NCBI GenBank assembly: GCA_047967505.1
Contig: CM106538.1
Direction: 5' to 3' (one strand)
DNA: 64,000 nucleotides
Source: Dipteris shenzhenensis
Lineage: Eukaryota
Shown: piece after piece, positions 5,541-42,934 of the stretch
Numbering within the stretch: the first letter of the stretch is position 1
Layout of the letters: every line of letters begins with the position of its first letter
Notes under the pieces: generated by a model
What the model saw: only the letters and a program-made list of their open reading frames with translations
The model's database searches: none
What the model was told of the DNA's origin: nothing
Made by a program: the position numbers and the translations under genes

Positions 5541-5559
5541 GAATTGTGAAAGGGCTGTT

Positions 5560-6830
5560 TTAATGCATCGTTCTACTTTTAGACCTTCCCATCGTATCAT
5601 CATAGATCTAGGCATACTTGAGATCTTCTTCAAAGGTTTTGGAAAATTTTATCCTCACCTTTACCCTTGTAATTATCTTTTAGATGTGTCACAAGAACCC
5701 TTACTCTTTGAAACTCATCAATGCCTTTAAGTTTGAGGACCCATTGAGGATTGCTTCTCTATAATAAGCTATATATTGGACTAAGGATATCCCAAGCATC
5801 CCATGCACTCTCACGCTCATTTTCAAAGAAAATTTCCTTTAGGAAAACGTGTTCAAACTCATGCTAATACCTTGGGATTGTCAACCTCTCTAAGTCTTGT
5901 ACCACCTTTTATATGCTTTATTACCTAGGGAAAGACTGGCTTCCACGATTCGTTTTCAAGAGAAGCATATCTAAGTTTATGGAAACCTTACCATTTTTGT
6001 AAGAACGTATTAATACTGTCTCTATTTCTCTCTTTTTCTTCCCCATTATAAATTGTTGGCTTTAGAGTTTTCAATATATTTGAGGTCTCCCCAAGTCAAG
6101 AGGCAAGCACTTCAAATTCGTGTGGAGAGTTGGCAATATATCTCTAGGAATTCAACTTTGGAGTTGATTCGATTCCTTTTAATATGTGATATAATGACAT
6201 AGCTTTCTATTTTTAATTGTTTAAAAACAAAGCTCTAAGATGTCTTTGTGCATAAGGAGATAGATCTCACACCCTCAATGCCCATATGTTCTTGTGCATA
6301 CATCTATTTTGATCTCTTTAAGGAATTCTCTTGGCATGTACTAGTGTGTTCCTTACAAGCTAGTGAATTGTTTGAATTGCTTCAACTTTGCTTTGCTATC
6401 CCTGCTTTGGTAGTTCATTTTGGTGGTTAAATTGTTTTCCCTCGATGATGCATTATTTGGATGCAAATTTCTCCTCATAACAAAAAATGGTCAGTTTTAG
6501 AAGTTGCAATGTTAGATCAATAAGAATTTACGGGACATAGTGTTAAAAATGAATGAAAGCATCATCATGCGGAGAGGACCTTCTTGGGATGATGCTTGCC
6601 TCTAACGAGTTTGAAGTAGGGCTATTGTCCAAGGCGATTTCCTTCATGACTAAGCAGATAATGGATGAGTGTCAGACATTCTTCTTCGCCAGGCCAGGGC
6701 ATCATTACAAACCTTCTCAACTAGACAATGATATTGCTAGCTATAAAGCAACACATATGCTGCACTTATCCGTTAACATAGAGAGACAAAGGCAGATCCC
6801 AAGATTCACTAGAAAGCTTGATACCAATGT
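5560..6830 (-). mobile_element. Degraded Ty3/Gypsy gag and leader remnant with PBS
   Basis: Minus-strand PBS-like TGGTATCAAGC at 6826-6816 next to an LTR-like end (plus TGTGAG at 6828); gag-like remnant ASLSLGNKAYKRW...EFEHVFLKE...AWDAWD at ~5780-5940. Confidence 0.55.
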
Positions 6831-7854
6831 GAGATCTCGACAACTTAGAGACCGCTTCAAATTAACCACCTAGCCATGAGTTCCACATCCGATCCCTTGC
6901 CTTTCCTTCTTGGTTTTCTTGTTCATCCTTACATGACCATCCTCCTTTGGAACTATGCGAAGCTGTCTTTCAAACTGAGTGTTTGACAGTGAGACCCTAT
7001 ATTACTTCATTTAATTAGAGGGCCTTTAGTTGTGCACCATAACTAATGCCTAAGCCTAGCTATAATTTTAGGCCCAAGCCCAAACTCACTTTAATCAAGA
7101 AGTATGGTGATTTTACCTAAAGTTTGAGAAAATAGCTTGAAATTTTGATGAAAGCTCGACCTTAAGACTTTAGGTAAACTCAAAGTCATATCTGAGTTCT
7201 AATCCATAATAATTCCAAGTTTTTTAAACACATAAGCTATTATGGTCAATAATCAAAACCCAAAATTACCTTCTCAATGCATTAGCTAAGCTAACATGAC
7301 ATAAAAGTATCCTAAGAGATTTTCCTATCCTTCTACCAAATTGGCGTTCAGAGTGGAAGAGGGTATTTATCCCTCCCCCTAACTCTCAAGGAATACATTG
7401 GTGTGAGCTCCATCCCTTGTGTCTGATGGCCACCATCTTTGGTGCATCCCATTGAAACTCATGAGGTGAGGGTGATGGTTGGATCACTGTTACTTGCTTT
7501 CGATGGTGAGCCATGACCCAGAAGTTCATTTTGAAATCCATCAAAGGTCATTATTTTGCTTTCCTATGAGAAAAATAATATTGGAGACTCCACTATTTTT
7601 CATCTTTAACTTTAACTAATTTGAGCCTTTTGCTATTTTCTTTCCTTTGAGAGAAACAAATTTGGAGCTTGCGTTATTTTCCACTTATTTCCAACTTTTT
7701 CAACCTTATAAAACCTCCATGTATCTAGATGAAGGGCCCTCACACATTTTCTTCAAGAACAAACTCTCAAGGGAAAGATAATGACTGCCACTTGCCATTT
7801 TCCTTGAGTGGCAAGCTAGGGGGGGCGAGGGGGCTCAAGGATCCATCTTGAGTG

Positions 7855-8125
7855 TTATGCTGCTTGATATAGGGCCATACATGTTTAAGGGTGGGTAAAC
7901 ACTCCCCTCATGCCTGCCCATCTGCTTGAGGGATGGGCGGGTGTGCTTTATACATCGAGGGGACAGGGCAAGGAAAAATCCACAAATGGTTTATGTTGCT
8001 TGATATAGGGCCATACATGTTTAAGGGTGGGTAAACACTCCCCTCATGCCTGCCCATCTACTTGAGGGATGGGCGGGTGTGCTTTATACATCAAGGGGAC
8101 AGGGCAGGGAAAAATCCACAAATGG
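7855..8125. repeat. 136-bp tandem duplication (2 copies)
   Basis: 7855-7990 is repeated from 7991 with a few substitutions; each unit holds the inverted pair CCTGCCCATC/GATGGGCGGG. Confidence 0.92.
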
Positions 8126-9102
8126 GTCTTACCTTTGTTAGCAAGTTAAACGTAGCTTATTGGTTGAACTCTCGTCTTTTGCCATGCTAGGAATGAACGA
8201 GGGAGTTTGGTTGCCCTAGGTTATGTCCAACGATATTTTGCACATCCCATGATATTCATGGCATCCACGTCCTTCCACGCCTCTAGTGCCTTGTAAACAT
8301 GGTAAGAGGCCATTCTCATTCACAGCTAGGGAATGTCACAAAATGCTTGCGCTTGGGACATTGCCACTAGCCCCCTTGCTACTGCAATGCCACATTGTAG
8401 TACCCGTTGGAGATGTGAAATAGTAGTCTGAAGCCAAGCATTACGGTGCTACTTGCTTGCAAACCTATGAGAGACCTTGCAAACCAGTCCACCTACACGT
8501 TTTCGGGTCCCATCATCTTGTTCTGGCCTCCTTTTTTGGGCAGGGAAGTAGTGAGTGGGAAACATTCCTGAGCTCCATGCCAGTCCACGCGACAAGAACG
8601 TCTGGGTTTAGACCACCCGACCACCCATTGAGGAGGAAATATAATTGGAGGATGGTAGCAGTGTGTGGTGGGTCACACTACCCGGCGATCATCAGGCTGC
8701 TAATTTACGTCACCTAACTTGTGATTGGTGTAGAGGTTGGGGGAGATGGAATGAGCCAAGCATATAGCAGATGGAGGAGGTGGCCATGGAGTGGGGTGGC
8801 CTATCAAGGGTCGGACACAAATCTTTTGTGTCAGTGTCCGGGCCGATCCCTCCTCTTAGCCCAAGTAGGACAACACCAGCACCATGAGAATGGCGAGCTT
8901 GGTGGTGTGCACTAGAGACCACCTCTCTAGTAGGAATGAGGAGGAATGGAAAAAGCCTAGTGTGAATTCGACATGCATCGTAAAGGCGATGCATGCAAGC
9001 TTACGCTACCAGTAGTATATTAGTACTAGTACTAGTTAGTGTGCACGCCTTCAACATTGCAAGACTTTGGGCTACTGTTGCCTTCACTCCTTCCACAGCA
9101 TC

Positions 9103-9193
9103 ATGGTTGAGAAACAAGGACGCGATGCTCATGCTGTGGCAAACGAGCTGGTGGCATTCCTCAATGCTTCCCCCACTCCTTACCATGCTGTTC
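9103..9193 (+). CDS. DNPEP: Aspartyl aminopeptidase (peptidase M18), coding exon 1
   Basis: ATG at 9103 translates MVEKQGRDAHAVANELVAFLNASPTPYHAV, the M18 N-terminal F-L-N-A-S-P-T-x-Y/F-H-A-V motif; GTAAG donor at 9194 (phase 1). Confidence 0.9.
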
Positions 9194-9283
9194 GTAAGAT
9201 CCCACCCGTTCACTTCCTCTTTTCCTCTTAATTGCTCCAGTTTTCTGGTTCCTGAATTTGGGTCTTTTCTCTCTGTCCCCTAG

Positions 9284-9419
9284 ATGAGGCTAAGGCCAGG
9301 CTCAAGGCAGCAGGCTACGTGCAGTTATCAGAAAGGGCAGATTGGCATCTCAACGCAGGCGGCAAATATTTTTTCACCCGCAATCACTCCACGATCGTTG
9401 CCTTTGCTGTTGGTGGAAG
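9284..9419 (+). CDS. DNPEP: Aspartyl aminopeptidase, coding exon 2
   Basis: Pyrimidine tract plus TAG acceptor; (H)EAKARLKAAGYVQLSERADWHLNAGGKYFFTRNHSTIVAFAVGG; GTATG donor at 9420. Confidence 0.93.
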
Positions 9420-9511
9420 GTATGTAGATTGTCCTTCCTAAAGAATCTTCAGTGGACTTATGGTCATGTGAAATTCTGGATGAGGTCATGATTCATCTTT
9501 GCATTTGGCAG

Positions 9512-9590
9512 GTATGTTCCTGGGAACGGCTTCATGATCGTTGGAGCTCATACGGACAGCCCGTGCCTAAAGTTGAAACCAGTCTCAAAA
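9512..9590 (+). CDS. DNPEP: Aspartyl aminopeptidase, coding exon 3
   Basis: CAG acceptor; (R)[26 protein letters not shown] with the zinc-ligand motif GAHTDSP; GT donor at 9591. Confidence 0.95.
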
Positions 9591-10760
9591 GTACAGTTGA
9601 ACACGTTTTCTCCCTGTTCACTTATATATACTAATATTATACCAGGTTACCCCCTTTTAATTGTATGTTTGTCGTGTGTTTCGATTCAGCCTTAGACGTC
9701 TTTGGCAAGGATTTCACAAATAATAAGGCACGTCACGGTGGTTCTCAACCATAACATGGGCGGGGGATTGAACCAGGCACCTGACAATTTGATAACGGAC
9801 GATCATATCGTGCACATCTGGCCTTAATATGCCAGTTCAGCATGCCACAGAAGACATGAAATATAACCCAATTTCGCAACGAACCCACTAATGAACATTT
9901 CCCAGTTTGCCAAGTAAACTAAGATCCTATAACTAAAAATGAATGGTCCTTTGGTTTCACATGGATAGAAGTTCTCATTGATTGACAAATGGGCGTGCTA
10001 GGCCACGAGTGAAATTTGTAACGATACTGGCCCCTATTGTATAGCCCATAATCGATCAGAACTGTAAAGAAAGTACTCATGGGCAAAAGACTGTTTCGGG
10101 GAAATTTCTCAAAAGGGTCTTTAGCCATCCTGTCTTTAAATGAATAGGGGGATGAGAAAGTGAAGAAGATAGGGGCATGTTGAAGGGCTGTTGGGGCTTT
10201 AATAATTATGGGATTATTGAACGTTCACAAACTATATGTGGCAATTCCAAAACTAAAATTTATTCGCACAACAAGCGAAAATGTTAAATTGTCTGACCTT
10301 TAAGGTCTGAGACATATGTTGCTAATTCTGCGCCCTATGTGAGGGTGCCTGCTTCATTAGGGAGGCTTGCTGATTTCATTAGGTGCACCCAAAAATTGAT
10401 TTGCAGTGCTCATTTAAACTTTGTATTACTCTTGCGGGGACCACAAACTGCTGAAGTGTTGTCGTGAGGAAACTGTTGATCAGTGTTAGGTAAGACCAAA
10501 TATCTTACAAGTCAATTCTCTTCCATCATGGAAAACCATAGTTGAATCATGTTATTGATTGTTGTCATGCTACAAGCTGAGGCAAAGAAAAGAAGCCCAA
10601 CTCTAGATAGACCAGATGATGTTGTTTATTCGTGTGCGTCTATTTGCTGTGATGTGTGAATGTCTTCTATATCCTTTGTATGGAAGCAAGGCTTCCTCCT
10701 CAATGGTTTTATATAATATGGGATTTGATTCGCTAGTGTGCAATCTAAAATCAAGCTTAG

Positions 10761-13700
10761 TGTCATGATCTGTGATGTATTCCTTTCTCTATACCTTAGA
10801 CTTATGGATGGTTTTAATGAATGGACACTTGTGGAAGGGTATGCCCTTTCGACGGGACACTTCCTATGAGGCACAATCCTTCACAAGAGACATTCTATTG
10901 AAGAGACACTCCCATTGTAATGTACCCTCCATCAAGGGTCACACTCTTCACAAGGGGTACACACCTCTTCATGCACATACACTTTGGAGTACACACCTTT
11001 TCATGTGTGACTTTTCACTCTCTATATAAGAGAGGCCCAACTGTATGAATGACACACTACAGACATTCAAGCAATACAAATATTCCTTGTTCTCTGCTAC
11101 TTCAGTCTCTTTTTTGTTCCTTAGCACATTTCTAAATATAGTAAATCTAGGATGTCTTATAGTGGTATCAGAGCAAATTTCGCTCCTGCTTGTAGGAAAT
11201 GCCCCCCACCTTCTAGCGCCTATCTGATACATCTTTTTCCGCTAGAAGGATATCCACGCACGTTATGCATGGAAGAGATGGAGAGAACGAGCGTAAAATT
11301 TTTTAGTGCCAACCCCACCTAAACTCATCAGTGGCCTCTCCATCTTCCTTACATCACGAGTTGATGTGAATGGACACGACAAAAATCGTGTCTTTTGATG
11401 TGCTTGGGCTGTCCCAAAACCAAGGGACGCACCTTTTCCACCATCAGGCACACCTTTTGATGAAGAGTTTTTGACTCCTCACCCAAGGGACACACCCCAT
11501 CGTGGAAAAAAGGGACACATATTTTCGTGTGGGGACACCCCTCTTTAAAACAGGGTTACACCCCTTCATGAAAAGGTACACCTATTCCAAGGGTCACACC
11601 CCTTAGAATAGGCACACCCTTTGGCACCAAGCACCACCCTACAAAAGGGTACCTAGAGGGCCTAAAAAGCACAACCAGCCCTAAACCTAAGGCGCAACCC
11701 AAGATTACCCTTGCGTCCAAGTAACCTAACCTTTAATTTTTGGGAAAAGCAAGGCCTAGCAGTTATTGCAGCCTTCGCAAATCGGTTTTTGGTGTCTCGT
11801 AAGTCACGTCCTCTTCTCGAAAGTCACGCCTGCTGTTCCGTACAGTCTATCAGGCCGATTCTGCCCCTCCCTTGCTGTTTTCTGCTTGCCAGCCCACACC
11901 AAGCCCACACCAAGCCCACATCAAGCTTGCCGATCTCTGTTTGTAGGTTTTTGCTCAGCCTTTGGCGGCCTTTCATAGTCACGCCAATCATGCCCTCAGC
12001 CTTCTATCTGTTCGCTAGCCTCTGCTCAGCCATGGATGCGTTCCATCGCCCTGAAGAGTGACAGCCTGACGCCAATCTCTGCATAGCCTGCTAGATCTCT
12101 TCACCTCGCCATCTCAGCCTGCGAACAGAGGCCTTGTTGTACAGCAAATTCCCTCAGCCAGCCCCTCTTGTACAAGAAAACATCGTCTCTATCAACAGAT
12201 CAAGCCCCAACTGGTTGATGGTGCTATGCTATTGTTGGCGACATATTTCTGCCCACAACCGGACTGTTTGGTTGCTGAATCGCCTCCCTCTACAGCAAAC
12301 CCTAATTTCAAAATTTGAAGCTTGACTATTGTCTTCTACCAACTTGACATCAGGACCTCCTTCAACTCGGAATTGATGCTGTACTTTTTCCAGCCCAAAG
12401 CCACCCCACTGCTGGTACACGCTTTTTAGCACAGTCTGGCAGATCTAATCTATTCCAAGTGGATTCTTTCCATTCTATTTTTAAGGATTCTCCTTCATAT
12501 TGTTATTTGCTGCTCATTATCAAATTACAGCAAATGAAAGCCCCCTCCTTAAAGCATGGAAACCTCTGGTAATGCCCCAGTCCCTTCAAGGACACCTCAG
12601 GCATCATCTTTCACACAATATCGTGTCCAGATTGCACAACCAGCCCATTTCGGAGCTTTTGCATCGTGGGTCTTCTGTGTCACGTGCCCTTCCAGTGATT
12701 TGGACCACATCCTATACCTTCTGCGTGAGGCACCTCAATTACATTACTTCCTTAGCGCAGTCCAGGTTGTGTTTCACGAGACACGTAGATACCTAGAACC
12801 CGATATTCCTCAGGAGTTTGCTGTCCATCTTTGGAGAGACTTTTACCCCTCAGCTTCAGCATCTCTAGGGTACTCTCCACCTCCTTCAGCTCCCAGATAT
12901 CCTCCTGCACAGGTTTTACCTTCCCCAAGACAGTATTTACACTCTGAAGGCACTCCTTCTCCTGGATATCCTCCACTCCCGACAGTAGCTCCTTATCCCT
13001 TCTCAGATCCGTGGACTTTGCAACCTACCTGTGTACTCTTACGAGCATTAACACCCACTGCGGCATCACTAGTGTTACCTCAGACAGGACCTCCTTTACC
13101 AGATTTCCACGGGTGGTTCCATCCTGCCTCGCCTGCCCCCTCCAACGCAGGTTTGTGCTTTTCTCACAGGGACCTCAGATATGTTGCAACGCTCACGGGC
13201 AGCCTCTCCGGCGATAAGCGACTCAAGTCCAAAAAAGACCCTTGAAGTCAACTTACAAGGCGAAGCACTACTTGAACTTCAAATTTCTCCGCTTTAGGAC
13301 AGCATCTCCGACTTGGTCCAGAAAGTCCAACAACTCCAGGATTCTCGCAGTATCACACATACAGAGGATGACGTGACACCACCAGATGACTATGTGGACT
13401 CGTTCCCACCAGAGATAGAAAACACTGAACTCCGTGCCCTCTACCGCTTACTCCAAGCTTCCAAAACTAAATAAACTTCCGAAAGCCTACATTGGTCAAC
13501 GAAATCGCCAAACAGTTGACCAATGGCTCGCAAAACTGCACATGTACTTTGATACTGTTGATCTCACTGAAGGAAAAAAGATTGCCTTGGCAGCCTCCCT
13601 CCTCAAGGATATAGCTTTCCTATAGTGGCAACGATACTTAAAGGACGGCAAAAGTGTGTTAACTTGGGAACGTTTTGAACACGTGCGCCATAAGCAGTTC

Positions 13701-16700
13701 ATACCTGCCAATGCGGACTTCCAAGCATGTTCAAAACTCTGACAGTTGGAGCAAACAGGCTCCCTATCTTCCTACATCTCTCAGTTCATCACGTTGGTGC
13801 TAGAGATTGATGGTTTAACTGATGATGATTGCCTTCATGCTTTCATCTCAAGCCTAAATCCCTCGTTACGCATTGATATCCTCAAAGCAAACATCACCAC
13901 CACAGCTAGCGCTATTGCTTACGCAGAGCGCATTACCGATTTCCAAAACTCAGGAAAGCAAAGTTCTAATAGAACACGAAACTCTACTATGGCCAAGGAT
14001 GCTCGCCCTCAAGCTAACCCCAAGTTCAAAAAAAACTCGGGTAATCAAGGTCAGCGACAGTTTCAAGATCCCCACAAGTCTTAGAAATCGTATGCTGGAT
14101 CCCAACAGAAGCACTCCTTCAAGGATCGCGCCTCTTCCTCTTCACAAGTCATGACCAACATCACCAACATAAAGGTGCGGCCACTGACAAGAAGAACAAC
14201 TCCAGCACAAAAGGGATTTGTACCATCTGTACAGGCGACCATAGATGGTTCGATTGTCCCAAGTGACCAAAGCGAAATTCCAATATGGAACCTAGCACTT
14301 CCCAAATAGAAGATGCTGCCCCAGCACAAGACAAGAAAGACAAAGCTGTTCGAATGGCAAATACCATCCACATGAGCCTTGCCAGCAACCCCGAACCTTC
14401 CCTAGCCACTCAAGTACTTTGTGTCCAAGGATCGATTCGTGGAACAACGGTCACTATCCTCATCGATAGTGGCTGCTCTCATAACTTCCTAGCTAGTTCT
14501 ATGGTCGAAAAACTTCGGTTGACCACCAGTCCTAGTCCCATGGACTATCAGATTGAACTCGCAAATGGAACTACCTTCTTGTGCAGCACCAGGATCAAAA
14601 ACTTGTCTTTTCGCATACAACATTATACGGACAAGTTGAACTTCGACATCATGTCTCTTTCTCAGTACGATGTCATACTCGGACAATAGTGGCTCTGCGA
14701 CTATGATCCATCAATCAGTTTTCGCAGCCATACTATCCAGTTTGTCCGCCAGGGAAAACTTATTGAGCTAACTGGTTCTAGGGACTCTCCTTCAACCCCA
14801 GTTGCCTTTGTCCTACAAGTAAAGAAGTGGGTTCGTAAATGTCAAGTAAAGACTTCACTTCTGTTGGTTATGGCAGTAGAGGAGACACCAACAAAGGATC
14901 CTCCTGAGTACCTCAACCAACCTTTTTTCCAGCCCTACCTGGATATTTTTCCATAGGAATTGCCAAAGCAGTTACCACCTCGACGACCAGTGGATCACCC
15001 AATCGAACTTATTCGAGGCAGTAATCCACCGTCGAAACCTCCTTATCGGGTTTCTTACACTCAAAATAAAGAAATCCAAAGACAGGTGACTGAACTACTC
15101 GACAAGGTCACATTTGGCCCAGTCGCAGCCCTTTCGGATCTCATGTACTACTTGTGGAAAAAAAGAATAAGTCAATGCGCCTCTGCATCGACTACCGAGC
15201 CCTCAACAAGCTCACTATAAAAAACAAGTATCCATTGCCTCGCATCGATGACCTCTTCGATCAACTTCTACACGCAACACAATTCTCAAAGATTGATCTT
15301 CGTTCAGGTTATCATCAAATTCGCATACGAGAAGGCGATGAGTACAAGACAGCTTTTCGAACAAAGTATGGACACTATGAATGTTTGGTCATGCCTTTTG
15401 GGTTAAACAATGCCCCGGCCACATTCATGACGCTAATGAACGACATTTTAAGGCCTTTCCTCAATAAGTTCGTCATCGTTTACCTCGATGACATCCTCGT
15501 TTTCAGCAGATCCCTACATGAGCACATATACCTAGATGAATCTAGGAACATTCCCAAACTCATCCTCTAAAAACACAACATAGTGCAGTTTCAATCTCAT
15601 GATAGTCACTCACAAGGTTGAAAACCATAAACTCCATCATGCATAGCAAGGACTAGCTACTATGACATCCCCACTGATGTCATCAGCGCCCAACAGTGGG
15701 TGTAGACCATAGTATAAATGTTCTCACACATATAAATCCACAAACCCACACATACTTGAGCATCCATTTATACAAAGTCTTCGTACTGAGTTTCTGTCGG
15801 CACTCCGGAGGTGAAGGGTAGACTCAGCCATGATGAAGGCTAGCACTAAAGGAGAAGGCTAATCAAAAGGTAGTCCAAAATCTCTTCATTCAAGCTACAA
15901 CTACTTGTGAAGTCTAAACATTTTCATTTTAGTCTCTCCCCAACGAGCATCTAAATCTAAATCTAGCTGATAGGGCAACACACCATTTAAGATAGAAAGA
16001 ATTATCACAATACCAGCAGGCCGCAACTTGGACGAAAACTTCACAAGGTGAAATTTGCATGTCCGCTAATACGGTAGAAGCATATACCTAGATGAATCCA
16101 GGAACATTCCCAAACTCATCCTCTAAAAACACAACATAGTGCAGTTTCAATCTCATGATAGTCACTCACAAGGTTGAAAACCATAAACTCCATCATGCAT
16201 AGCAAGGACTAGCTACTATGACATCCCCACTGATGTCATCAGCGCCCAAACAACAACATCTCCACCAAGTTTTTGAAGTTCTCCGCGCAAATTCTCTCTA
16301 CATCACCGTTGAGAAGAGTGAGTTCTTCAAGACCCAACTCGAATATTTGGGACATGTTATTTCAGCTCATGGCATCTCTGTGGATCCCAAGAAGGTCGAG
16401 GTAATCCGAAACTGGCCTACTCCTAAGAATGTTCATGATGTCCGCTCTTTTCTCGGATTGGCAAACTTCTACCATACAAAGGTCTATCAGTTTTCCGAGA
16501 TCGCTGCTCCTATGTCCGAATTATTGAAAAGCACAGCAGTTTTTCAGTGGCTTCTTGAAACAAAGCATAGTTTCCAACAACTCAAGCAAGCACTCACTAC
16601 CACACCAGTTATGGCTATTGCTGACCCAAACCTTCCATTTGAGGTCATGACTGACGCTTCTGACATCGCTACAGGAGCAGTCTTGATGCAAGAAGGTAGA

Positions 16701-18935
16701 GTTATTGCTTTTGACAGCCATAAACATTTCGATATCCAAACCTGATACCCGGTTTATGATAAGGAGTTTCTTGCCATTGTACATGCTTATCGCTCTTGGA
16801 AACATTATCTCATGGGAGCCGACTCGGTGGTCAAGACAGACCATCATTCTCTAAAGTATATCTTTACTTAGTCAGTCATGAACGCTCGACAAGCACGCTG
16901 GGTTGAGTTTCTAGCCAACTTTGACATGACCATTGAGTACATTCCAGGACTACGCAATGTAGTTGCAGATGCTCTCAGCAGGTTAACTCTAGCATCAGCT
17001 ATGGTAATCTCTACATTATCTGTGGATGTTCTGAATTCATTCAAAGGGAAGTATCTCAATGATAAAGACTTCGGCACAGTAGTACAAGTTCTTTCAAAAG
17101 ATCAACCTTCGACTTCCCAACATAAGATTTTCTCATCCTATTCTTATACGGACGACCTTTTGTATTATCAAGATCGCGTTTGTGTACCACATGACAAGGA
17201 TGTTCGACGTCTTTTGTTAAAAGAGCATCATGCAGTTCCTTATGCTGCCCATCCAGGCATCAACAAGACTTACAGGTTACTTAGTGCAACATACTACTGG
17301 CCTCAGATGAAAAGCGATGTCATCAAAATGGTTACATCTTGCTTATCTTGTCAACAAATGAAAGCAAGCCGACGACTTCCAGCAGGACTTCTTCAGCCTC
17401 TTCTAGTTCCAACTGAAAGGTGGGAAAGTATTTCCATGGATTTCATTACAACACTACCACGATCTTCCAGATGTAACACTCAGATTATGGTAATTGTTGA
17501 TCGATTGTCCAAAATGGCACACTTTGTTGCTTGCAAAAGAAGTGCCCAGGCTCCGGACATCGCCAAACTCTTCATACAACACATCTTTCGACACCATGGA
17601 TTGCCCAAGAATATCGTATCCGACAGAGATCCTAAGTTTACCAGTCACTTTTGGATTTCATTGTTCGAATCTTTGGGTACAACTCTATTGTTTAGTTCAG
17701 CCTACCACCCAGAATCAAATGGTCAGACTAAAAGAGTCAACCAAGTTCTGGAAGAAATGCTCCGCCATTATATTCAGTCACGCCTAGCAGCTTGGGAAGA
17801 GTATCTACCACTCCTTGAGTTTGCTTATAATAACTCTTTCCATAGTGCCATCAGCATGACTCCATTCCAAGCAGCTTATGGACACACTTTGATTGTACCA
17901 ACGAATTTTGTACTTCAACATCGAGTGGCCCTAGCTGATCAATTGGTTCAAGAAATGCAAGACATTCTACTCCAAGTCAGGGATCATATGTGAAAAGTGC
18001 AAGAGCAGTATCAACGGTCCATAGACATCACCTGGAATTTGAAACTGGTGACATGGTGCTATTATTTGTAGCCCAACATCGCTACAAGACGGTTAAGTCT
18101 GTGTTTCCTAAGTTGCGACTAAGATACTATGGACCTTTCCGGATCGTCAAGAAAAATTCACCTTTAAGTTACAAATTGGAATTACCACCATCATGGGGTA
18201 AAATCCACCTGACATGTCATATTTCTTGGCTAAAGACGTACATTCCGGGCGATGAAGCTCTTGCAAGTGATTATGTCCGAGAAATCAAAGACGATTATGT
18301 TCTCCTTATTCCTGAGCGTATTCTGGACCATCAACAGCGAGAGAATCGACATCGACTTATCATGGAATTCCTTGTTCTTTGGCGAGATCTGGACGACTCC
18401 GACGCTACTTGGCAATCTGATGAAGACTTACAGCAGTACCGTGACATTTTACAGCAGTATTTTCAGAATTTACCGTGATATTTTCTACATCAGCTGATTA
18501 TCTCCACCAGGGTCTTATTTTGAGTGGGAGGGGATGTCACGATCTGTGACGTATTCCTTTCTCTGTACCTTAGACTTATGGATGGTTTAATGAATGGACA
18601 CTTGTGGAAGGGTATGCCCTTTCGACGGGACACTTCCTATGAGGCACAACCCTTCACAAGAGACATTCTATTGAAGAGACACTCCCATTGTAATGTACCC
18701 TCTCATCAAGGGTCACACCCTTCACAAGGGGTACACACCTCTTCATGCACATATACTTTGGAGTACACACCTTTTCATGTGTGACTTTTCACTCTCTATA
18801 TAAGAGAGGCCCAACTGTATGAATGACACACCACAGACATTCAAGCAATACAAATATTCCTTGTTCTCTGCTATTTCAGTCTCTTTTCTGTTCCTTAGCA
18901 CATTTCTAAATATAGTAAATCTAGGATTTCTTACA
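10761..18935 (+). mobile_element. Ty3/Gypsy chromovirus-type LTR retrotransposon, structurally complete, coding decayed
   Basis: 401-bp LTRs 10761-11161 and 18535-18935 (about 10 substitutions and 2 indels by eye); TSD CTTAG/CTCAG; PBS TGGTATCAGAGC at 11163; PPT at 18522; gag ~13434, protease ILIDSG, RT YLDD, RNase H, integrase 16878-17993, chromodomain EFLVLW...ATW. Confidence 0.97.
15526..16250. repeat. 725-bp insertion in Gypsy RT bounded by 169-bp direct repeats
   Basis: 15525-15693 equals 16081-16249 with one mismatch; RT reads SLHEH|QQHL across the insertion; no TSD seen. Confidence 0.9.
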
Positions 18936-19203
18936 CTCAGCTTTCACAACAACCCATATAGGGATGATGAGAATGACCATGATTGCCACAATCTTCCTAC
19001 AGATACGCAATTCTGAACTATGATTACAACTAGCAAATAAGCTGCAAGAGCAACAACAATAACTGAGAACATGTTTGGCCACTACAGTTTCATTGCCTGC
19101 ATGAGCCGTATAACAAACATGAAAGTAAGGCATACGATAGGCAAAAGCCATGCTGTAAGGAAAGGAAAAGCTTCCAAGAGATACAAAATTGGTAAGTATC
19201 ATC

Positions 19204-20230
19204 CTATCTGTCCATCAACCACTCACGGTGTTGCCCATGGAGATGGATAAGACTCTCCAACCCTTCAGGGCACTCCGTGAAGACGGCATTCAGGAGGCTC
19301 TGAGGGTCAAGGAGATCATGAAACGAAGGGGAGATGATATACGTTCCCAACACAGCAGTCTGTAAAGACAGACTGAAGTGTTGGAGAGCAGCGCAGATGT
19401 CGCGCTCCAATTGGATTAATTTGTAGAGCAGTTTGCTGCTCCTTGTCAAAGACAAATGTTCGGGAGGTGGGTGCTGATAGTCTATGGCCTCTCGACACAA
19501 CACACTTCGCTTCACGTCTCTGACTGCGAAGTGTGTGAATCCCCTTGGGACGGGGACTCCTGTCGGGAGGGTGGCTCTTACAAACACATCGACCTCAGCT
19601 TCAGCTGGTCGTGTGCGTGCCACCACCTCCTTGTCCTTGAGCTTCCTACAACGGGAAGCCAAGGTCTCTTATGATGAATTTGCGAGGTACGGTATCTTCA
19701 TCGTTGGAGCACATGACAACCTGGGTATGTCTGCTCCACAAATAGGGTCAAGCTCGCGCGGCATGCCCTCTCCATGATGATTGACGTGTCTGTCTGAAGA
19801 CTTTTCGGAGTTTTGTTTACACTGCCTAATTCCTTCTCGACATTTTTGAGCCTTTCATTGACATTTTTGAGCCTTTCATTGACATTTTTGAGCTTTTCAT
19901 CGATGTCCTCTATCCTTGGCATCATCATGATGATGAGCTCCTTCGTAGTCTTCCCGGAACCTTTCCCTCTTATAACATGCTTCCATTCGTCCTCGCTGTT
20001 TCCAGAAGCACATCCAGTCTTTGCTTTTGCTTGGGCTGCAAATTGAGCGAGTTTTTTGATTGCCACTTTCCACTGTTGTTTGCTTGCTTCTGCTGCCTTA
20101 CCTTTCCTCCCCAACCGGAATTTATGGCTTGGGTTAAAGAAGAAAAGCTTCTCTGTTATGTCGCCAACCCTGAAGAGCCTCCAAACGCGGTTCCACGGAG
20201 TGCTGAAGTCGCGTGGTGGCCTGATATTTC
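19204..20230 (-). pseudogene. Decayed coiled-coil plus putative PD-(D/E)xK-fold nuclease gene, antisense in host intron 3
   Basis: ORFs 20114-19698 (heptads LKNVNER; frame stays open up to ~20230) and 19662-19204 (EAEVDVFV...FAVRDVKRS...KLIQLERD) are separated by a frameshifted stretch. Confidence 0.55.
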
Positions 20231-20639
20231 AGAGTTTGTTGGGTCGGCCTTTAGCAACATCGCAGCCCTCAACTGTTCGTGTTTAGCAGATGGCTCATCA
20301 ACCCACAGAAACTCATCAAATCAAAAGGAAGAGAAGGCATGCCTCTATTGTATTTGAATTTGGCATTGAACATGTATCCTATTGAGTTTGGGACCACCCC
20401 CCTCCAATCTCCAACCAATTAAGAATTCCTGTACCAAAAATCACCCCAAAGCAAAGTCTCTAATAATACAAATTGAGAAAACATATCCTGGAAACTCAGT
20501 CTGATGCTGCAAGTACTTTTTGAAGCACCTTTCCTATGGCATTCACAACAGTGATGTGTTTTTACTCGGTTCCTTCCATCACGTCCCAGACTCTTCCCAA
20601 GCCACCAGATGGCTCCAACTCGATACTTTCTAGATCATA

Positions 20640-21148
<509 letters not shown>

Positions 21149-21221
21149 TACATGCGCGCGAACGTACGCACACACGCACATATGTATGGATATGTCACGC
21201 GTATGCACACACCCCTATATA

Positions 21222-21263
<42 letters not shown>

Positions 21264-21354
21264 GAGTTTGCATGACCCACCTTCGGCGGATCTTGCAAAC
21301 TCTTACCACGGCCACTATGTGCATGTGTGTTACACATACATATGTGTATGCATG

Positions 21355-21695
21355 TGGTAGTCCAAGAGCTTGTGGCAATTCATGAGTCCGTAAAAGTCCA
21401 AGAGTTCAAGGGTGGTAATTCAAGACGTAATGATAGTCCAAGGTTGGCACGTGGGATAGTCCAAGAGCCCCTGGAAGTCTAAGAGTCCTAGGGTGGGAGT
21501 CCAAGAGCTTATGGTAGTCTAAGAGTCCAAGGATGGTAGTCCAAGAGCTTGTATGGTTCAAGGGTGACAGTCCGTGGTGGGCTCCAATGTTGGTAGTTCA
21601 GGAGCTTATGATAGTTCATGAGTAAAAGTCCAAGAGTCAAAGGGTGGTAATTTAAGGGGTACCGATGGTCCAAGAGTCCAAGGGTGGCACGTGGC
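21355..21695. repeat. Degenerate minisatellite built on GGTAGTCCAAGAG
   Basis: Many AGTCCAAG(AG) cores; a ~100-bp block at 21355-21452 recurs at ~21592-21693. Confidence 0.85.
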
Positions 21696-21705
21696 AACAT
21701 TTTCT

Positions 21706-21739
<34 letters not shown>

Positions 21740-21741
<2 letters not shown>

Positions 21742-22260
21742 GAGGGGTTGTTGCTATGATATTATCAATTTTTTCTGCCAAGCTCCCTTCATGCCAATCT
21801 TCAGGTAATCCTCCAATGCGTAGACATCGAGCATTAGCCGCCCTCTTTTCTTGTTCCTGCACCTCTCCATATACTTCAGTTTTGTTGATTTTGCTGTCCA
21901 TTGTTGCTGAGATTTCCTCTTTGATCGATTTGACCTCATTGGTAACCATGTCATGGACTTTGGTTACCAACTGTGGTGCAGGTTCTGCTTCCATGTGTAT
22001 TTGTAGTACTTCTTGTATGATGTCTTGTTTGCCATTGTTCTCCATCTCCTTCACTTTCCTCTCGAGAGCTGCAACCATAAGTCTAAGCTCCCTTACTTCC
22101 TGCTGTAGAAAATATATCTCCTATGGGTCTGAGCCAACCCTCCGCTTTCAATGCAATGTGTATGGGCTGGTGTTGCTGCGATGTCGGAGTAGGAGGGTTT
22201 TCTGATAGGGGTTGAAACCAAGGTCTTCACCTTTGCATGATGGCCTGTGAATAACTTGGA
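21740..22260 (-). mobile_element. LINE ORF1 fragment (coiled coil plus RRM start) bounded by (GA)n tracts
   Basis: VQEQEKRAANARCLRIGGLPEDW parallels LLEQQQRASKALNIRVRGIP in ORF1 of the LINE at ~48900; (GA)n at 21708-21739 and 22290-22326. Confidence 0.6.
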
Positions 22261-22286
22261 GCCCTCTTGCTGTCTCTAACACTCCA

Positions 22287-22330
<44 letters not shown>

Positions 22331-22392
22331 TAACATCTTTGAAAGATGGAGGGGTCTATGAGACTAAAAAATAATCTAGATACGATGAAAGC

Positions 22393-25300
22393 TGTTGGGG
22401 ATAAAGGAATAATGTGCTATCCCTTGTATAAGTGGTACTTATAATGCCACGTCATCACCTTATCTATTCTTTGTATAAAAGGCAATAAGGGAAGTCACAT
22501 CGTAGACTTTTGCTTCCCACAAACTTGTGTTCTCTCTTTTGCTCTCTCACCTTTCTCCATCTCCCTCTTGCTTCCGCTCCTTGCTCCCATCAATTGGTAT
22601 TAGAGCCTCCCTACCCACCAGCTTCTCCTCGTTCCCTAGCCTCCCCTCACTGTGTGACCTTTCCATCGCAGGAAGTCACTTGTTCTTGCTGCCCACGCAG
22701 TCCAGCCACTCTCCCTCGCTGCCCCCAGCTGTTTCGTGGAGTTTCATCGCGGGAATCACTTCTATTCTCGTGCTCCTAGCTGGAGACATCTTTTGGGTGA
22801 GTGTACTTGCTGTTTTTCAGCATTTTTGACTGGTTTTTGGGCTGTTGCAAGCGAAATACAGCGAGAAAGTGGTCAAGGACACTTTCCAGTTGGAGTTTTT
22901 GGTATTGCTACACCTCCTACAGCAGGGCGACTACATTTGGATCACATTTGGTCCGATTTGGTGCTGTTTACGCTGGGCGACAGTTTTCAGCCACACAGGA
23001 GCTGAATTTCGTCTGTCATTTTGGGTTTTTTCCTCCAGTTTTTGCACTAAAGCTGGTCGCCTACACCTGTAGAGGAATCCTGCCAAGTTTGGTTGGATTT
23101 TGACTGCCCGTTGCGAAGTTCTTGCTGATTTTCAGTTTCCAGCCACAGGGCAAGTTGCAGATCTGTGGATTTCGCACATTCTACTGCTGATTTGACAATA
23201 TAAAAGTGGTCGCCTACTTGAAGGGACACTGTCTGCCAAGTTTGGTTGAATTTCGCCTTCGTGGTGCTGAGTTATCATCACTTTTAGGGTTCAGCCTGTC
23301 AGAAAGTGACACGTGGCAGTGGATAAGGCACATAAATTTGGGGCTTTTGCAATTTTATGCATTGGAAGGCTTGCTCTTGCACATTGAAGCAAGAAATTTT
23401 CAGTTTGGGACACATTGGAAGAGGGAATCTCAAAGAATTCAGAATATTCCAAGAATATTCCTTGAGCTTGATGCCATAGGTTATGCATTTGTGAAGTAGT
23501 GCTTGGAGCACTTGGATGCATTGACATTGTTGCAAAAGTGGTACTGATTTCCTTTATGCTTGGATTGTGCACATTTGTGGTAGTCAAAGTTTGACTTTTG
23601 ATCTCAGAAATTGGGGCTTTTGGTGCACAAGTGCTCAGCAATTTTTGTGACACTGGAATAGTGTCTTGGATGCCTTTGTGTTGAGAAAAACAAGAATATT
23701 GTTTGTTGCAGATTTATGACTGTTTTTACTGTCATTTTGGGACAGTTTCTTTGAGTTTTGGATGCCTCTATCTCTGTCACAAGTTGGGACAGAATTTTGA
23801 GTGAGTTACACTCAGTTTTGCAGGCATATTTCACTCAGTTTTGGAGTTATATTGGTGCAGGAAATTAATTACAGTTTTGGTACTGTTTATGCATTCAAAG
23901 TTGGAATATATATTGGCTGCAAGTTCTCTCCAGTAGAGGACAGATTTTACAAGCTTTTTTTAATCTCCTTTGCTGATTTTTTATTTGCTGAGATATGGCT
24001 TCAAGTGGGAGTGAAGGTGGTTCACTTCTTAACATCAAGAAGTTGGAAGGAGTACACAATTTTGCCATTTGGCAAAAGCAGTGCTATAATGTGCTTCTTC
24101 AAAAGCATCAAGCCCGTCCTATCAAGGAAAAGGGAGTGAAGCCGGCAAATATATCAGATGATGATTGGGAAAGTGTTGATGAATTGGCACGTTCTACAAT
24201 CATGCTTTCTATTTCAGATGTGCTTCTATTTAATGTTGAAAATGAGAACACTACATGGGATATGTGGAAAAGGTTGGAAGACTTGTATGCTCAACAAAGT
24301 GCAGCAAGCAAGGTTTATTGGCTCAAGAAGCTCATGGATCTTAGGATGAAGGAGGGCACAACTATGAGTGTGCACCTCAATGAGTTCAACTCTATCATCA
24401 AGCAGTTGGCAAATCAGAAATTCAACATTGATGATGAGTTTAAAGCAACATTCTTGCTTTGCACTCTTCCTGAGAGTTGAGATATCTTAAGGGCAAAATG
24501 CATGTGTGCATTTGCTTTGGGAAGAAAGACTTGGTTCTTCATGGGTTCACAGACAGCCCATAGTCAGATGTTGAGAGGGCTGAAATGGCCAAGATTCCTT
24601 ATGCATCCGCGGTTGGTAGTCTCATGTATTCAATGGTGGCTACACGTCTAGATATTGCCTTTGCAGTGGGAGTTGTCAGTAGATACATGGCAACACCTGG
24701 CAAGAAGCATTGGGAAGCCATGAAAGGTATCATGAGATATCTTAAGGGCACAATGCATGTGTGCATTTGCTTTGGGAAGAAAGACTTGGTTCTTCATGGG
24801 TTCACAGACTCAGACTTTGCAGGATGTGTAGACCAAAGAAAGTCTACTACAGGATATGTTTTCACCTTACATGGTGGTGCTATTTCATGGATCTCTCGGT
24901 TACAGAAATGCATTGCTTTATTTACCACAGAGGAAGAATATGTTGCAGCCACAGAGGTGTGCAAAGAAGCCATATGGTTATCTTGTCTAGTGGGAGATAT
25001 TGGTTTATCAGGAGAGGTTCCTATTTTGCATTGTGATAGTCAGAGTGCTATTCAGCTAGCACGTAATCCTGTGTTTCATGCCAAAACGAAACACATCGAG
25101 GTGAAATATTATTTTATCAGAGAGGTGCTTGAGGATAAGCGTATTCAGCTTGTTAAAGTGCACATTGATGACAATCCTGCAGATCTTTTAACCAAGAGTC
25201 TTAACCCGCAACGCTTTGCACATTGCAGAGTACAGATGGGTGTTGGCTGAGTTTCTCATGATTGAGATTCTCTTGTATTTTGTGTATATGTTTTCTATGT

Positions 25301-25600
25301 ACACTTCTTCCTCTTTTTGGGCACATTGCCTTTAAGTGGGAGATTGTTGGGGATAAAGGCATAATGTGCTATCCCTTGTAAAAGTGGTACTTATAATGCC
25401 ACGTCATCACCTTATCTATTTTTTGTATAAAAGGCAATAAGGGAAGTCACATCGTAGAATTTTTGCTTCCCACAAACTTGTGTTCTCTCTTTTGCTCTCT
25501 CACCTTTCTCCATCTCCCTCTTGCTTCCGCTCCTTGCTCCCATCAATTGCTCTCTCACCTTTCTCCATCTCCCTCTTGCTTCCGCTCCTTGCTCCCATCA
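22393..25600 (+). mobile_element. Non-autonomous Ty1/Copia element (gag N-terminus joined to RT end/RNase H; PR, INT and most RT deleted)
   Basis: LTRs 22393-22592 and 25345-25545 (plus a 55-bp duplication to 25600); TSD AAAGC on both sides; PBS TGGTATTAGAGC at 22595; PPT AAGTGGGAGA; gag 23995-24480; RNase H ORF 24585-25250. Confidence 0.96.
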
Positions 25601-25871
25601 AAAGCTAAGGGCTAGGGCTCACTAAATGGGCACCCATACAAGGCTTATGTGTGACGTGAAAACATAATACATTGCGCTCTCATTGCACGAGAGAGAAAAC
25701 CCAAATAAGAGAACAATGCGGGGAAGCTCTTGGTTATCTACTTTCATGTGCATGGTGTACCTAGGGTTAGATAGCAGGCTAATGCGTGAGTCAAGAGGTA
25801 GCAAAGGGCGGGATGGCTAGTTTTAGTCGAGACTGCTATATATAAAGCTTCCTATATGTAGAGGATGCTAT

Positions 25872-26202
25872 TGATAACACGGTTTTCCTCTATATAAGTG
25901 AGAGCCTGTGCTATTGCAGATCACTTCAGGTGAGCGCTTCTCAAGTGATGGTTGGGCTTGGACCCTGGCGCCTGGTCGAGACTATGGCCATCTACGTGGC
26001 GGATCATAGGTTGCGCATCGAATGTCTTCTGGATGAGCTCAAGTGGTATGGGACGCTTGGGTTAGATGTGGATCTATGGAGGAGTCGAGCTGTAGCCCAC
26101 GTGCTCGGGAGGATCGAGATTGCATGCGCCGGATTGGGGTCAAGATCTCGGGTTAGTGATAGGGTAGATCTTGTAGAGTCGTATCATTTGGTATCAGAGC
26201 CG
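25872..26202 (+). mobile_element. Orphan LTR plus PBS remnant
   Basis: TGATA...TATCA ends (25872-26186) followed by PBS TGGTATCAGAGC at 26189; no internal domain follows; left boundary uncertain. Confidence 0.5.
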
Positions 26203-26249
26203 CCCTATTACAATAGGAAGTGATGTAAAGTATGCACAATTGCGATCTT

Positions 26250-28080
26250 CAGGTATGATACTCATACTTGCGTGGGACTTCTGAATTCCCTTCCTGAATC
26301 AGGACGATTCTATGGGGGGTTGGAACGGGGTGGTGTGTTGTAAAATTATGCATTGGTATGTTTATATCATATGTGTATATTTGCATATGGTTTTGCAGTC
26401 CTTTGCAAAATGTCTTGGCTGGTTGCAGTAGAAGCATTTCTTCTTCGTCTCGCCTCCACTAGATGAAGAGGAGTCCTCCTCGAGGTTTTCCATTCCTTTT
26501 GTTGTTGTTGTTGGGCATGCCGTTGCTTGGCTTACCAATTCACTATGCCATTACTTGTCTTGTGCATAAAAAGGCTTGTCATTGGATCTGTTGTTCTCTG
26601 TCTCTCGTGGTTCTTTTGCAGAAGCAAAGGCACTAGCTCCTTGAAAGTCCGGTGCTGACCATTGTCCTGTAACCATGGATGTAACAAACCCTTTATAGCT
26701 CTTGGGGAGCATTCCAAGCAAAAACCTAGCAATGTATGCCAAACCGTTGGCTAACCAATTGCTGACAGTCGATCCCTCACCACCTTCATCTAGGTGATGC
26801 GATCCCCCACTGTGTTCTCCTCATCGAACTTCATGTTACAGAGTTCCATTTCCATGGTGAGGATCTTGGCTGTGTTGTTGATCTCGTACATATCTTTCAG
26901 CGTGGTCCATGCTGAAAACGCTGTGTCACCTAGTTGAACGTGAGGGAGGACCCAGTTTGCAGTCGTGCCAATAATGATGGCAAGGGCCATCTGCATCTCA
27001 CCGACTTGGTCCGTATGTGTCACCTATGCTCAAGCCACATTCTTGACATCTTGTGGCCTTAGCTCCACTACTTTTATCATCTCCCAAATCATCCGAGCTA
27101 TCAAGTGGCTCTGGATCTTCATCTTCCAGAGAGTTGTTGCTTCCATCAAGCTCACCCGATTCCTCCCTAGATCTTCGAATGGGAAGTCTAATAGCCATGA
27201 TGAGGAAATAAAGGGCTTAGGAGGAGTACACCTGCCTAAATCTACCCCCCTCCTCTTATCCTTTAGACATAATAGTTGATTTCTACAAGCTGAATTGAGA
27301 CCTTCTCCACAGGGGTCTGTCCCTCGAGCTTCCAGCACTTGTGAGTCTTCCTCAGGGCTCCGATAACATGTTAGAAAACAAGGTGGAGGCTGCTTGCTAG
27401 AGCCAACTCTCCCTATAGTGAAAGATAAACAAGGAGTAGCCCGGGAATCCAACTTCTTTGCTCAATATCTACTAGTGTGCAGAGAGAGAGATGCAGATGG
27501 TAATTGAACAATGCTCAAGAGAGAGACTAGACTCCCAAAGATGGACCAAACACATTTAAAAAATGTGTGCACAGTCCAATCACTTTATTTCAAATCTTCA
27601 ACTCAGTTTACTCAAAATCTTTCACTTCAATCACTTTATTCTTCAAATCAATTTCAACCTGCATGCTCTCCTACAGCTTTAGTGGGCTGCATAGTCGTGC
27701 TCCGTGGATACGCCTTACTGCTGCTGTTCCTGGAGAAGACCTGTAATGAGAGCTCCATGAACCTCAGATCTGTTTGCTGCTCTGGAACTGCAGCCAACCT
27801 GAGAACAACCGTAAGTGCAAGGTACTGCTCTTCACCCTGTAGATGATCTGTAGACTATGCTGCTTAGCTATTGGATGATCCCTAGCCTCTCTGCTGGCCT
27901 GGTAGACAGTCCAGAATAGAGATCTTGTAGAATAAGGCAATAACAAGTAAGCAGCTTTGGGCCCAAAAATTACAACATGCCATTTGTGTTCGCTCATATG
28001 AGATTTATGCACAAGAGGTTCACCTGTAAGGGCCAATGATCAGCCATATCTGATTCGCTGAATCGATCTTATTATGAACA
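26250..28080 (-). mobile_element. Truncated Ty1/Copia (5' LTR, degenerate PBS, gag with zinc knuckle)
   Basis: Gag motifs WKMKIQSHL, AWTTLKDMY, LLGMLPKSY and CFYCNQPRHFAKDC; PBS-like TGTTATCGGAGC at ~27368; putative LTR 27369-28080 (TGTT...AACA). Confidence 0.8.
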
Positions 28081-28352
28081 GAATTTGATGATTTGAATGA
28101 TGGAGCTTTACGCAACTTTTATAGATCAGTATCATTGAATCAACCATGTGCTTCAATTGTTAGTATAAAAGGTTGTTCAAACTTTAATGTTAAAGGTCAC
28201 AGTGAACCAAGAAATGTCTACAAGCGTCATTGCATGCCTCGTCTCTAGTTCGTGCGTATGCTGTCTTAAAAATTTGTCAGCATGCTTTTGGTGACAATGT
28301 AAAGGTGATGTCATGACTATTGGATGCTTAATAAGTAGAATTCTTATTGCAG

Positions 28353-42693: not shown

Positions 42694-42778
42694 GTAACGG
42701 CATAACGAAATTCAATATGGTTTTGTTTTCAGGGCTGTCAGCACTATTTCTTCTGATGCATGTGTTTTTTGAACACAG

Positions 42779-42934
42779 CTGCTTGCCTATGAGTTAGGCT
42801 GTCAACCAGGAGAAATTTGTGACTTTGAACTGCAAGTGTGTGATACGCAACCAAGCATAATAGGAGGTGCACTTAAGGAGTTCATCTTTTCTGGGCGTCT
42901 CGACAACCTGTGCATGTCATTTTGTTCCTTGAAG
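42779..42934 (+). CDS. DNPEP: Aspartyl aminopeptidase, coding exon 7 (GC donor; gene incomplete in window)
   Basis: CACAG acceptor; LLAYELGCQPGEICDFELQVCDTQPSIIGGALKEFIFSGRLDNLCMSFCSLK with the RLDNL metal-ligand motif; followed by AAG|GCAATC. Confidence 0.93.

Follow-up and report, generated by a model that had tools for sequence, protein, structure and literature searches.

The 64,000-nt stretch of Dipteris shenzhenensis contig CM106538.1 analyzed here (the window) carries, on its minus strand, a broken gene copy that is probably the non-functional relic of a cellular gene. The family it comes from is an undescribed fern protein family in which a coiled coil is joined to a restriction-endonuclease-like domain, here called PD-(D/E)xK-like. 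The copy holds two minus-strand stop-to-stop open reading frames (ORFs), ORF-A (19698-20228, 176 amino acids (aa)) and ORF-B (19204-19668, 154 aa). Both contain the peptides quoted in an earlier note made from the letters alone (the original prediction). ORF-B matches the protein P0001 at E 4.4e-49, which is therefore more than chance. The two ORFs read as one gene, broken by a 10-bp deletion and an in-frame TAA. Apart from the 10-bp deletion and this nonsense codon, its N-terminal segment is inverted, and some 800 nt of coding sequence are missing together with the piece that bears the start codon; the copy cannot make the family protein. Its parts are given below. For comparison over 18936-20650, assembled contigs were taken from four public runs (X1 to X4) of three studies and three organisms (A, B and C).

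19204-19668, minus strand: ORF-B, coding for the nuclease-like domain except its N-terminal third (65% identity, E 4.4e-49, to P0001 residues 204-355), with the strand Asp of EAEVDVFV, the strand acid of FAVRDVKRS, the helix SSKLLYKLIQLERD, SPSF and the end WLMD
19204-19206, minus strand: stop codon of ORF-B
19669-19671, minus strand: premature in-frame TAA; TTA (Leu) in related contigs (19670 T>A in X1, X2 and X4) and Leu in P0001
19702-19703, minus strand: site of the 10-bp deletion and of the frameshift between ORF-A and ORF-B; 10 additional letters in X1, X2 and X4
19704-20116, minus strand: homologous part of ORF-A (P0001 57-188 at 43% identity; related contigs reach 20116), with a linker, the W..I..G..TTKEL motif, the heptad coiled coil and the first core helix with its conserved Glu (IIMERACR)
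19839-19900, minus strand: three 21-nt units, each coding for one heptad RLKNVNE; related contigs have one unit
20115-20248, plus strand: inverted piece (PEFMAWVKEEKLLCYV...AEVAWWPDISEFVG), which codes for the N-terminal domain's first half
20254-20322, minus strand: N-terminal domain, second half (FDEFLWVDEPSAKHEQLRAAML), oriented as the gene body is; directly after the first-half piece in relatives
18936-19203, minus strand: 3' flank of the gene copy, common to related contigs (X1 record 1 spans 18936-19603 unbroken); probably its 3' untranslated region, truncated by the insertion of a gypsy element

A fern protein family with a heptad coiled coil

A phmmer search of ORF-B against 1.84 billion cluster representatives returned eight proteins at E <= 0.001:

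P0001: E 4.4e-49, 65% identity to ORF-B
P0002: E 2.6e-31, hypothetical protein of Adiantum nelumboides
P0003: E 9.8e-17
P0004: E 2.1e-13
P0005: E 1.6e-10, hypothetical protein of Adiantum nelumboides
P0006: E 2.4e-09, hypothetical protein of Adiantum nelumboides
P0007: E 3.8e-07, a cluster of 9 members of 579-584 aa
P0008: E 9.1e-05, hypothetical protein of A. capillus-veneris

P0001, P0003, P0004 and P0007 come from contigs of 1.1-2.9 kb. The family thus searched appears small, seen so far only in ferns and other public assemblies, and its only public names are those of the Adiantum "hypothetical proteins." A heptad region precedes the C-terminal domain within one protein in all five matches longer than 300 aa (P0001, P0003, P0005, P0006 and P0007), which bears out the proposal that the two parts belong together; the three short matches hold the C-terminal domain only.

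The gene copy aligns with P0001 colinearly and, as had been proposed, without introns: P0001 57-188 corresponds to 20096-19704 (43% identity) and P0001 193-355 to 19701-19210 (62%). Its composition stands out from the surroundings. GC content rises to 0.49-0.52, and the observed/expected CpG ratio reaches 0.66 in the copy where the flanks have 0.37 and 0.39 and the window has 0.45, so that the suggested retention of CpG holds in part.

From TTKELII to IIMERACR, a single heptad register has hydrophobic residues at 15 of its 17 a/d positions. Tandem Repeats Finder reports a single array in the copy (19839-19900, period 21, 3.0 copies, 97% matches, score 117), which translates to EKLKNVNERLKNVNERLKNVEKEL and agrees with the three heptad-coding repeats described originally. 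The heptad that is repeated, two to four times, differs by lineage: RLKNVNE in the window, MDDRI[RG]K in P0001, LQRVESN in P0003 and LKGVQDD in P0006. Against the three units of the window, its closest relatives carry a single one: X1, X2 and X4 join 19852 to 19895 and skip 42 letters, and X3 skips 56. The coiled coil therefore seems to change its length by whole heptads through slippage of the 21-nt unit.

Upstream of the linker lies an N-terminal domain with the pattern F..MV....L.C[FY]N ... VWWP ... E.[EH][IV]FVD. The long members P0003 and P0007 carry it as a tandem pair (residues about 36-118 and 166-262); in P0001 there is a single partial copy, and the window copy keeps pieces of one. 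The nine members of the P0007 cluster are nearly identical and differ from one another in 36 of 584 columns. Variation is 4.3% in the C-terminal domain and 4.4% in the first N-terminal domain, against 10-16% in the linkers, which looks like the pattern of a constrained protein.

The profile collections scanned here do not cover the family. Pfam, searched with the window ORFs and the eight family proteins, gave only sub-cut-off coiled-coil matches and no family at E <= 0.1, and for the same set the NCBIfam matches were weak and confined to coiled-coil or low-complexity models. No PADLOC model matches the eight proteins at E <= 1. In a word-based protein search, ORF-A had no match, residues 375-579 of P0007 returned P0007 itself only, and alignment A2 found, among the matches listed, three known members only. 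The best score of P0004 in the ESM Atlas was 0.81, below the usable level, and P0003 1-290 had no usable match there. No description of the family was found in searches of open-access full text.

Lesions, rearrangement and the question of a retrocopy

The related contigs may represent orthologues or the parent paralogue, and their aligned pieces have 90-98% substitution identity to the window. The original prediction spoke of a frameshifted stretch between IIMERACR and EAEVDVFV. The break in frame is real, but its nature is simpler: ORF 19669-19854 and ORF-B lie in the same frame, split only by the TAA at 19669-19671, and the stretch is therefore one frameshift plus one stop. With the 10 letters that the relatives have after 19702, the frame is restored and reads ...HVLQPISKMKIPY..., agreeing with HVRQPISRLKLPY in P0001. 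These lesions, together with the inversion and losses described next, bear out the view that the gene is decayed.

The 5' part of the copy is rearranged. Aligned to the window, contigs of X1, X2 and X3 match the 20115-20248 piece on the opposite strand from the gene body and join it to 20322; the joint 20248|20322 is seen in three runs. In the one long contig (X2 record 8, 2632 nt), 801 letters intervene between the gene body (20116) and 20254. The window has instead, at 20115/20116, an inverted N-terminal piece that abuts a truncated body with a 2-nt overlap, and the roughly 800 nt between them are gone. Three 30-mers, taken from the ends of this middle piece and of the relatives' sequence just upstream of 20115, had no match anywhere in the window at <=3 mismatches. 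Just upstream of 20115 the relatives' sequence ends ...ATGGAGAAG, an end interpreted as the start codon. Nothing in the four runs' contigs aligned to 20328-20650. Dense microsatellites, (ATAA)n, (TA)n, (GA)n and (TATC)n, lie directly upstream of the gene copy at 20690-20885 and 21215-21262.

The coding content of the rearranged pieces agrees with this description. The plus strand of 20115-20354 matches P0003 41-88 at E 3e-05 and corresponds to positions 9-60 of a hidden Markov model (HMM) of the N-terminal domain. The minus strand of 20254-20322 corresponds to HMM positions 58-85, with E 0.004 among six frames and a weak direct match of E 0.27. On a window-wide scan both HMM matches are weak (E 0.2-0.5). 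The upstream extension of the frame that had been proposed (PPRDFSTPWNRVW..., through PPRDFSTPWNRVWRLFRVGD) is open but unlike the family. Compared with the family as a control, this frame at 20097-20228 on the minus strand scores E 1.0 and 5.6, while the plus strand matches the N-terminal domain; PPRDFSTPWNRVWRLFRVGD is therefore an antisense reading of an inverted coding piece.

This rearrangement gives some weight to another account of the locus, in which a long interspersed nuclear element (LINE) reverse-transcribed an mRNA of the functional gene and the product entered the intron in antisense, with its 5' part inverted and some of its interior lost, as in twin priming. Twin priming leaves an inverted 5' piece whose 5'-most end touches a 5'-truncated body, and the sequence between them is lost. 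The 20115/20116 junction, with its 2-nt overlap and about 800 nt lost, has the geometry expected of that process, and the promoter and the piece with the start codon are absent from the window. The copy is also intronless over P0001 residues 57-355, and the abstract of PMC4151081 defines a processed pseudogene as one without the introns of its parent. However, the 69-bp piece at 20254-20322 has the wrong orientation for simple twin priming. Neither the 268-nt 3' flank (18936-19203) nor 9693-10760 holds a run of >=6 A or T, although the true 3' end of the gene copy is not located. No target-site duplication was found either: words of 8-14 nt from 20316-20350 gave one 8-mer match in the left flank (10109), a weak test as the 3' boundary is not located. 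A processed retrocopy is a doubtful, if serious, alternative, and the copy may have arisen either by retroposition or by duplication and rearrangement at the DNA level.

A second type of contig in the four runs touches the 3' flank. It covers only 19099-19175 and 18936-18991, with 138 other letters replacing 107 of the window, and its depth in X1 is 133, against 15-42 for the gene contigs. It may be a repeated element or another transcript that shares sequence with the flank.

Predicted fold and active site of the C-terminal domain

Structure was modeled with AlphaFold on the homologues P0001 and P0007, which are 28-29% identical to each other, rather than on the window copy. The P0001 model (12 sequences) has a mean predicted local distance difference test (pLDDT) of 64, with C-terminal domain blocks mostly at 70-92. 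The P0007 model (14 sequences) has a mean of 56, with 65-92 in the C-terminal domain outside loops. With H for helix and E for strand, the elements are H108-180, E190-196, (H201-210), E226-237, E249-255, H279-300 and E308-315 in P0001, and H315-386, E392-403, (H408-417), E435-445, E473-479, H502-524 and E531-538 in P0007. Their order is the same in both predicted models and is that of the PD-(D/E)xK core: a long helix that carries on from the coiled coil, then one strand, an inserted helix, a pair of strands, another long helix, a strand that is buried, some short helices and a closing strand.

Structural comparison points the same way. In a look-alike search made without Foldseek, the P0007 model returned NucS at 7.0 (3.5, 104), PaqCI at 7.0 (3.4, 124), Can2 at 6.6, SduA at 6.3 and AF1548 at 6.2. 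The other rows in the look-alike searches of the two models were coiled coils matching the long helix and, in one search, also two pheromone-precursor lipoprotein domains. When the Foldseek top 1000 were re-examined, 37 of 50 rows were nucleases or nuclease complexes by title, 7 were unjudged and 6 were unrelated. Foldseek gave no match to the PDB at E <= 0.001; against BFVD its best E was 8.4e-04, and the named rows below were phage PD-(D/E)XK or restriction endonucleases. Searched by sequence profile, the PDB gave coiled-coil entries only for alignment A3 and 0 matches at E <= 10 for alignment A5. A PD-(D/E)xK-like fold is consistent with these results and is reproduced with a second member of the family, and no single score is decisive.

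The N-terminal domain is modeled with less confidence (pLDDT 25-65 in P0007); Foldseek found only weak ubiquitin-like entries for it (probability <=0.54, E >= 0.6), and no fold is assigned. A LINE ORF1p-like protein, which combines a coiled coil with an RNA-binding domain, was considered and dropped: there is no match to Transposase_22 or any other Pfam family, and the fold is nuclease-like.

The original prediction held that the Glu, Asp and D-x-K positions of a nuclease would be conserved in homologues. This is so for the acids. The helix Glu ([A/S/T/M]ER) is present in all six covering sequences, as E166 within helix 108-180 of P0001. The Asp of the second core strand ([A/V][E/D][I/V]D plus hydrophobics) is present in 9/9, as D230 in strand 226-237 of P0001. 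An acid ends the third strand in 9/9 (E254 in P0001), being E in eight and D in the window copy. The canonical (D/E)-x-K Lys at +2, by contrast, occurs in one sequence of nine, the window copy, and the relatives have T, S, A or M. Position +3 after the third-strand acid is basic in 9/9 (R in seven, K in one, H in one), so that the family motif is E-x-x-[R/K/H]. In the second helix, SSKLLYKLIQLER, the residues K, Q, E and R are invariant in 14/14 sequences (the Lys being K286 in P0001 and K509 in P0007). A review of the PD-(D/E)XK superfamily describes a Lys that has migrated into the second helix in Pa4535 (motif PD-EXX-K). Since such a move is documented, the active site of the fern proteins is plausible but non-canonical, and their catalytic activity is putative.

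The same residues can be read differently: the nuclease fold could serve as a module that binds nucleic acid or protein, in a family of structural or regulatory coiled-coil proteins. The loss of the canonical Lys in eight of nine sequences fits such a role, and inactive members and reuse of the fold are described in the same review. Yet the three acids are conserved at their canonical places (6/6, 9/9 and 9/9), a basic residue follows at +3 in 9/9, and the invariant Lys of the second helix has the placement which the review reports for Pa4535. A non-enzymatic family is thus an unlikely reading.

An intact family protein of about 580-620 aa begins with a basic N-terminus and one or two copies of the uncharacterized N-terminal domain. 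A charged linker, the W..I..G..TTKEL motif and about 8-9 heptads come next, and then a C-terminal domain of ~190 aa with the PD-(D/E)xK-like core. The heptad helix leads straight into the first core helix. The protein probably oligomerizes through the coiled coil, which would bring at least two of the nuclease-like domains together on nucleic acid, and slippage of the 21-nt unit would alter the length of the heptad run. A metal site would be formed by the helix Glu E166, the second-strand Asp D230 and the third-strand Glu E254 (P0001 numbering), with the classical Lys replaced by the basic R/K/H257, one position late, or by the invariant helix residue K286. Oligomerization, metal binding, nuclease activity and expression of the family are all inferred from predicted structure and conservation. 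It is a tentative possibility that the family consists of expressed, lineage-restricted fern nucleases in which a slippage-prone coiled coil sits on the first helix of a NucS/PaqCI-like PD-(D/E)xK domain, with an E...D...E-x-x-R/K site and a helix Lys, targeted by one or two new N-terminal domains.

Several observations weigh against the reading of the locus as a relic of a gene for a nuclease-like protein. Both models were built on shallow alignments (12 and 14 sequences), and no sequence profile from Pfam, NCBIfam, PADLOC or the PDB ties the domain to any nuclease family. With the canonical Lys missing in 8/9, the domain could be catalytically inert. Among the 40 differences listed of 121 rows, 31 are coding, and these fall 6/12/13 on the three codon positions, with no third-position excess (p 0.25). 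The data on relatives come from contigs assembled from coded runs, for which the assignment to DNA or RNA is a guess, and a fault of assembly could also underlie the window's rearrangement.

Genomic setting, origin and known systems

The gene copy lies antisense inside an intron of a Peptidase_M18 (aspartyl-aminopeptidase-like) gene, whose exons are found on the plus strand on both sides, in agreement with the antisense intronic position first proposed. The features of this setting are:

9256-9438, plus strand: Peptidase_M18 exon (profile 14-59, E 7.6e-11)
9492-9692, plus strand: Peptidase_M18 exon (PF02127 profile 57-90, E 2.6e-08)
9591-28352, plus strand: host intron of ~18.8 kb, with predicted splice sites (GT at 9591, AG at 28351-28352)
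10761-18935, plus strand: Ty3/gypsy chromovirus, starting 268 bp downstream of the gene-copy stop codon
28335-28586, plus strand: Peptidase_M18 exon (PF02127 profile 88-151, E 3.4e-22)
42773-42946, plus strand: Peptidase_M18 exon (profile 193-248, E 1.4e-13)

Spread over at least 33 kb, the host gene has introns packed with nested retrotransposons, and the exons that would correspond to profile positions 151-193 and past 248 were not located. The long terminal repeats (LTRs) of the gypsy element (10761-11159 and 18535-18933) are 97.0% identical over 400 columns, and its 5-bp target-site duplication (CTTAG / CTCAG) has one mismatch. Its insertion is later than the gene copy. The element has matches to protease, reverse transcriptase, RNase H, integrase and chromodomain, its coding region is split over several frames, and it contains a direct repeat of 169 nt (15525-15693 and 16081-16249, 99%). 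Further along the intron, a direct repeat of 205 bp and 97.6% identity (22393-22596 / 25345-25549) flanks a copia-type gag ORF (23992-24477) and may represent the two LTRs of an element that is small or truncated.

An intronless, decayed copy lying antisense in an intron rich in transposable elements also invites the view, raised at the outset, that the ORF is cargo or the own gene of an undescribed transposable unit that landed there. The 5' end of the copy is abrupt, related contigs join 20322 to other sequence, and PD-(D/E)xK nucleases serve some elements, with TnsA and the R2 endonuclease among the weak fold matches found here. Signs of mobility were nevertheless not found. A blastn comparison of 2500-10761 with 18936-26000 gave 0 matches, with no direct or inverted terminal repeats; the gene family has one copy in the 64 kb; and the unit holds no transposase, reverse transcriptase or integrase, while the adjacent gypsy element has LTRs and a target duplication of its own. 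Abundance does not suggest an element either, with only 8 clusters at 50% identity among the 1.84 billion representatives and each part covered, in the four runs, by one or two contigs of ordinary depth. The domains are less variable than the linkers among close members, as in host genes. A mobile element is accordingly improbable.

Similarly improbable is that ferns acquired the family horizontally from a virus or bacterium, its domain being kin to prokaryotic defense or repair nucleases: the distribution is narrow, with named matches in Adiantum only, the best structural look-alikes are prokaryotic (NucS/EndoMS, PaqCI, SduA, Can2 and McrC) and the best BFVD row (E 8.4e-04) stands above phage PD-(D/E)XK or restriction endonucleases, but no sequence relative was found beyond the eight clusters among the 1.84 billion representatives, no prokaryotic counterpart was found for the coiled coil and N-terminal domains, no relative of alignment A5 was confirmed in viral contigs (IMG/VR), GTDB genomes or JGI metagenomes, and tblastn of P0004 against phage records and plasmids had no match, so that recent horizontal transfer, also proposed originally, is without support.

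A relic of a cellular fern gene is thus the reading that we prefer. The gene copy itself is dead, and no function is expected of it; it matters because it points to a family absent from Pfam, NCBIfam and PADLOC. If members of the family are active nucleases, they would represent a new PD-(D/E)xK architecture in a plant lineage with poorly explored gene content, and a natural case of a coiled coil that gains or loses whole heptads as the 21-nt unit slips. On the tentative reading of expressed, lineage-restricted fern nucleases, the count of these units would tune how far apart the catalytic domains lie, in a plant genome-maintenance or genome-defense enzyme without a seed-plant counterpart.

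Known proteins of the fold differ from the fern family in several ways. DUF506 (PDDEXK_6) is a plant family placed in the PD-(D/E)XK superfamily, and DUF506 proteins are not known to have a coiled coil; its Pfam family did not match the fern family at E <= 0.1. Defense nucleases of the same fold, namely Shedu SduA (8ps4), Can2 (8q3y), McrC (6hz4/6ut7), Cap4 and Card1, differ completely in architecture and host. NucS carries an N-terminal beta-barrel domain for dimerization and DNA binding rather than a coiled coil, and it has the canonical ExK where the fern family has E-x-x-[R/K/H]. The C-terminal nuclease domain of NucS/EndoMS (PDB 2vld, 5gke) is 13-18% identical to the family, with no sequence-profile link. 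The type IIS endonuclease PaqCI (PDB 8em1) is 8-13% identical to the family in its N-terminal EN domain, and the part matched by the fern domain is, according to PMC10201449, its PD-(D/E)xK endonuclease domain. The same paper describes PaqCI as pairing these domains through a tetramer of target-recognition domains, whereas the fern family would use a heptad coiled coil.

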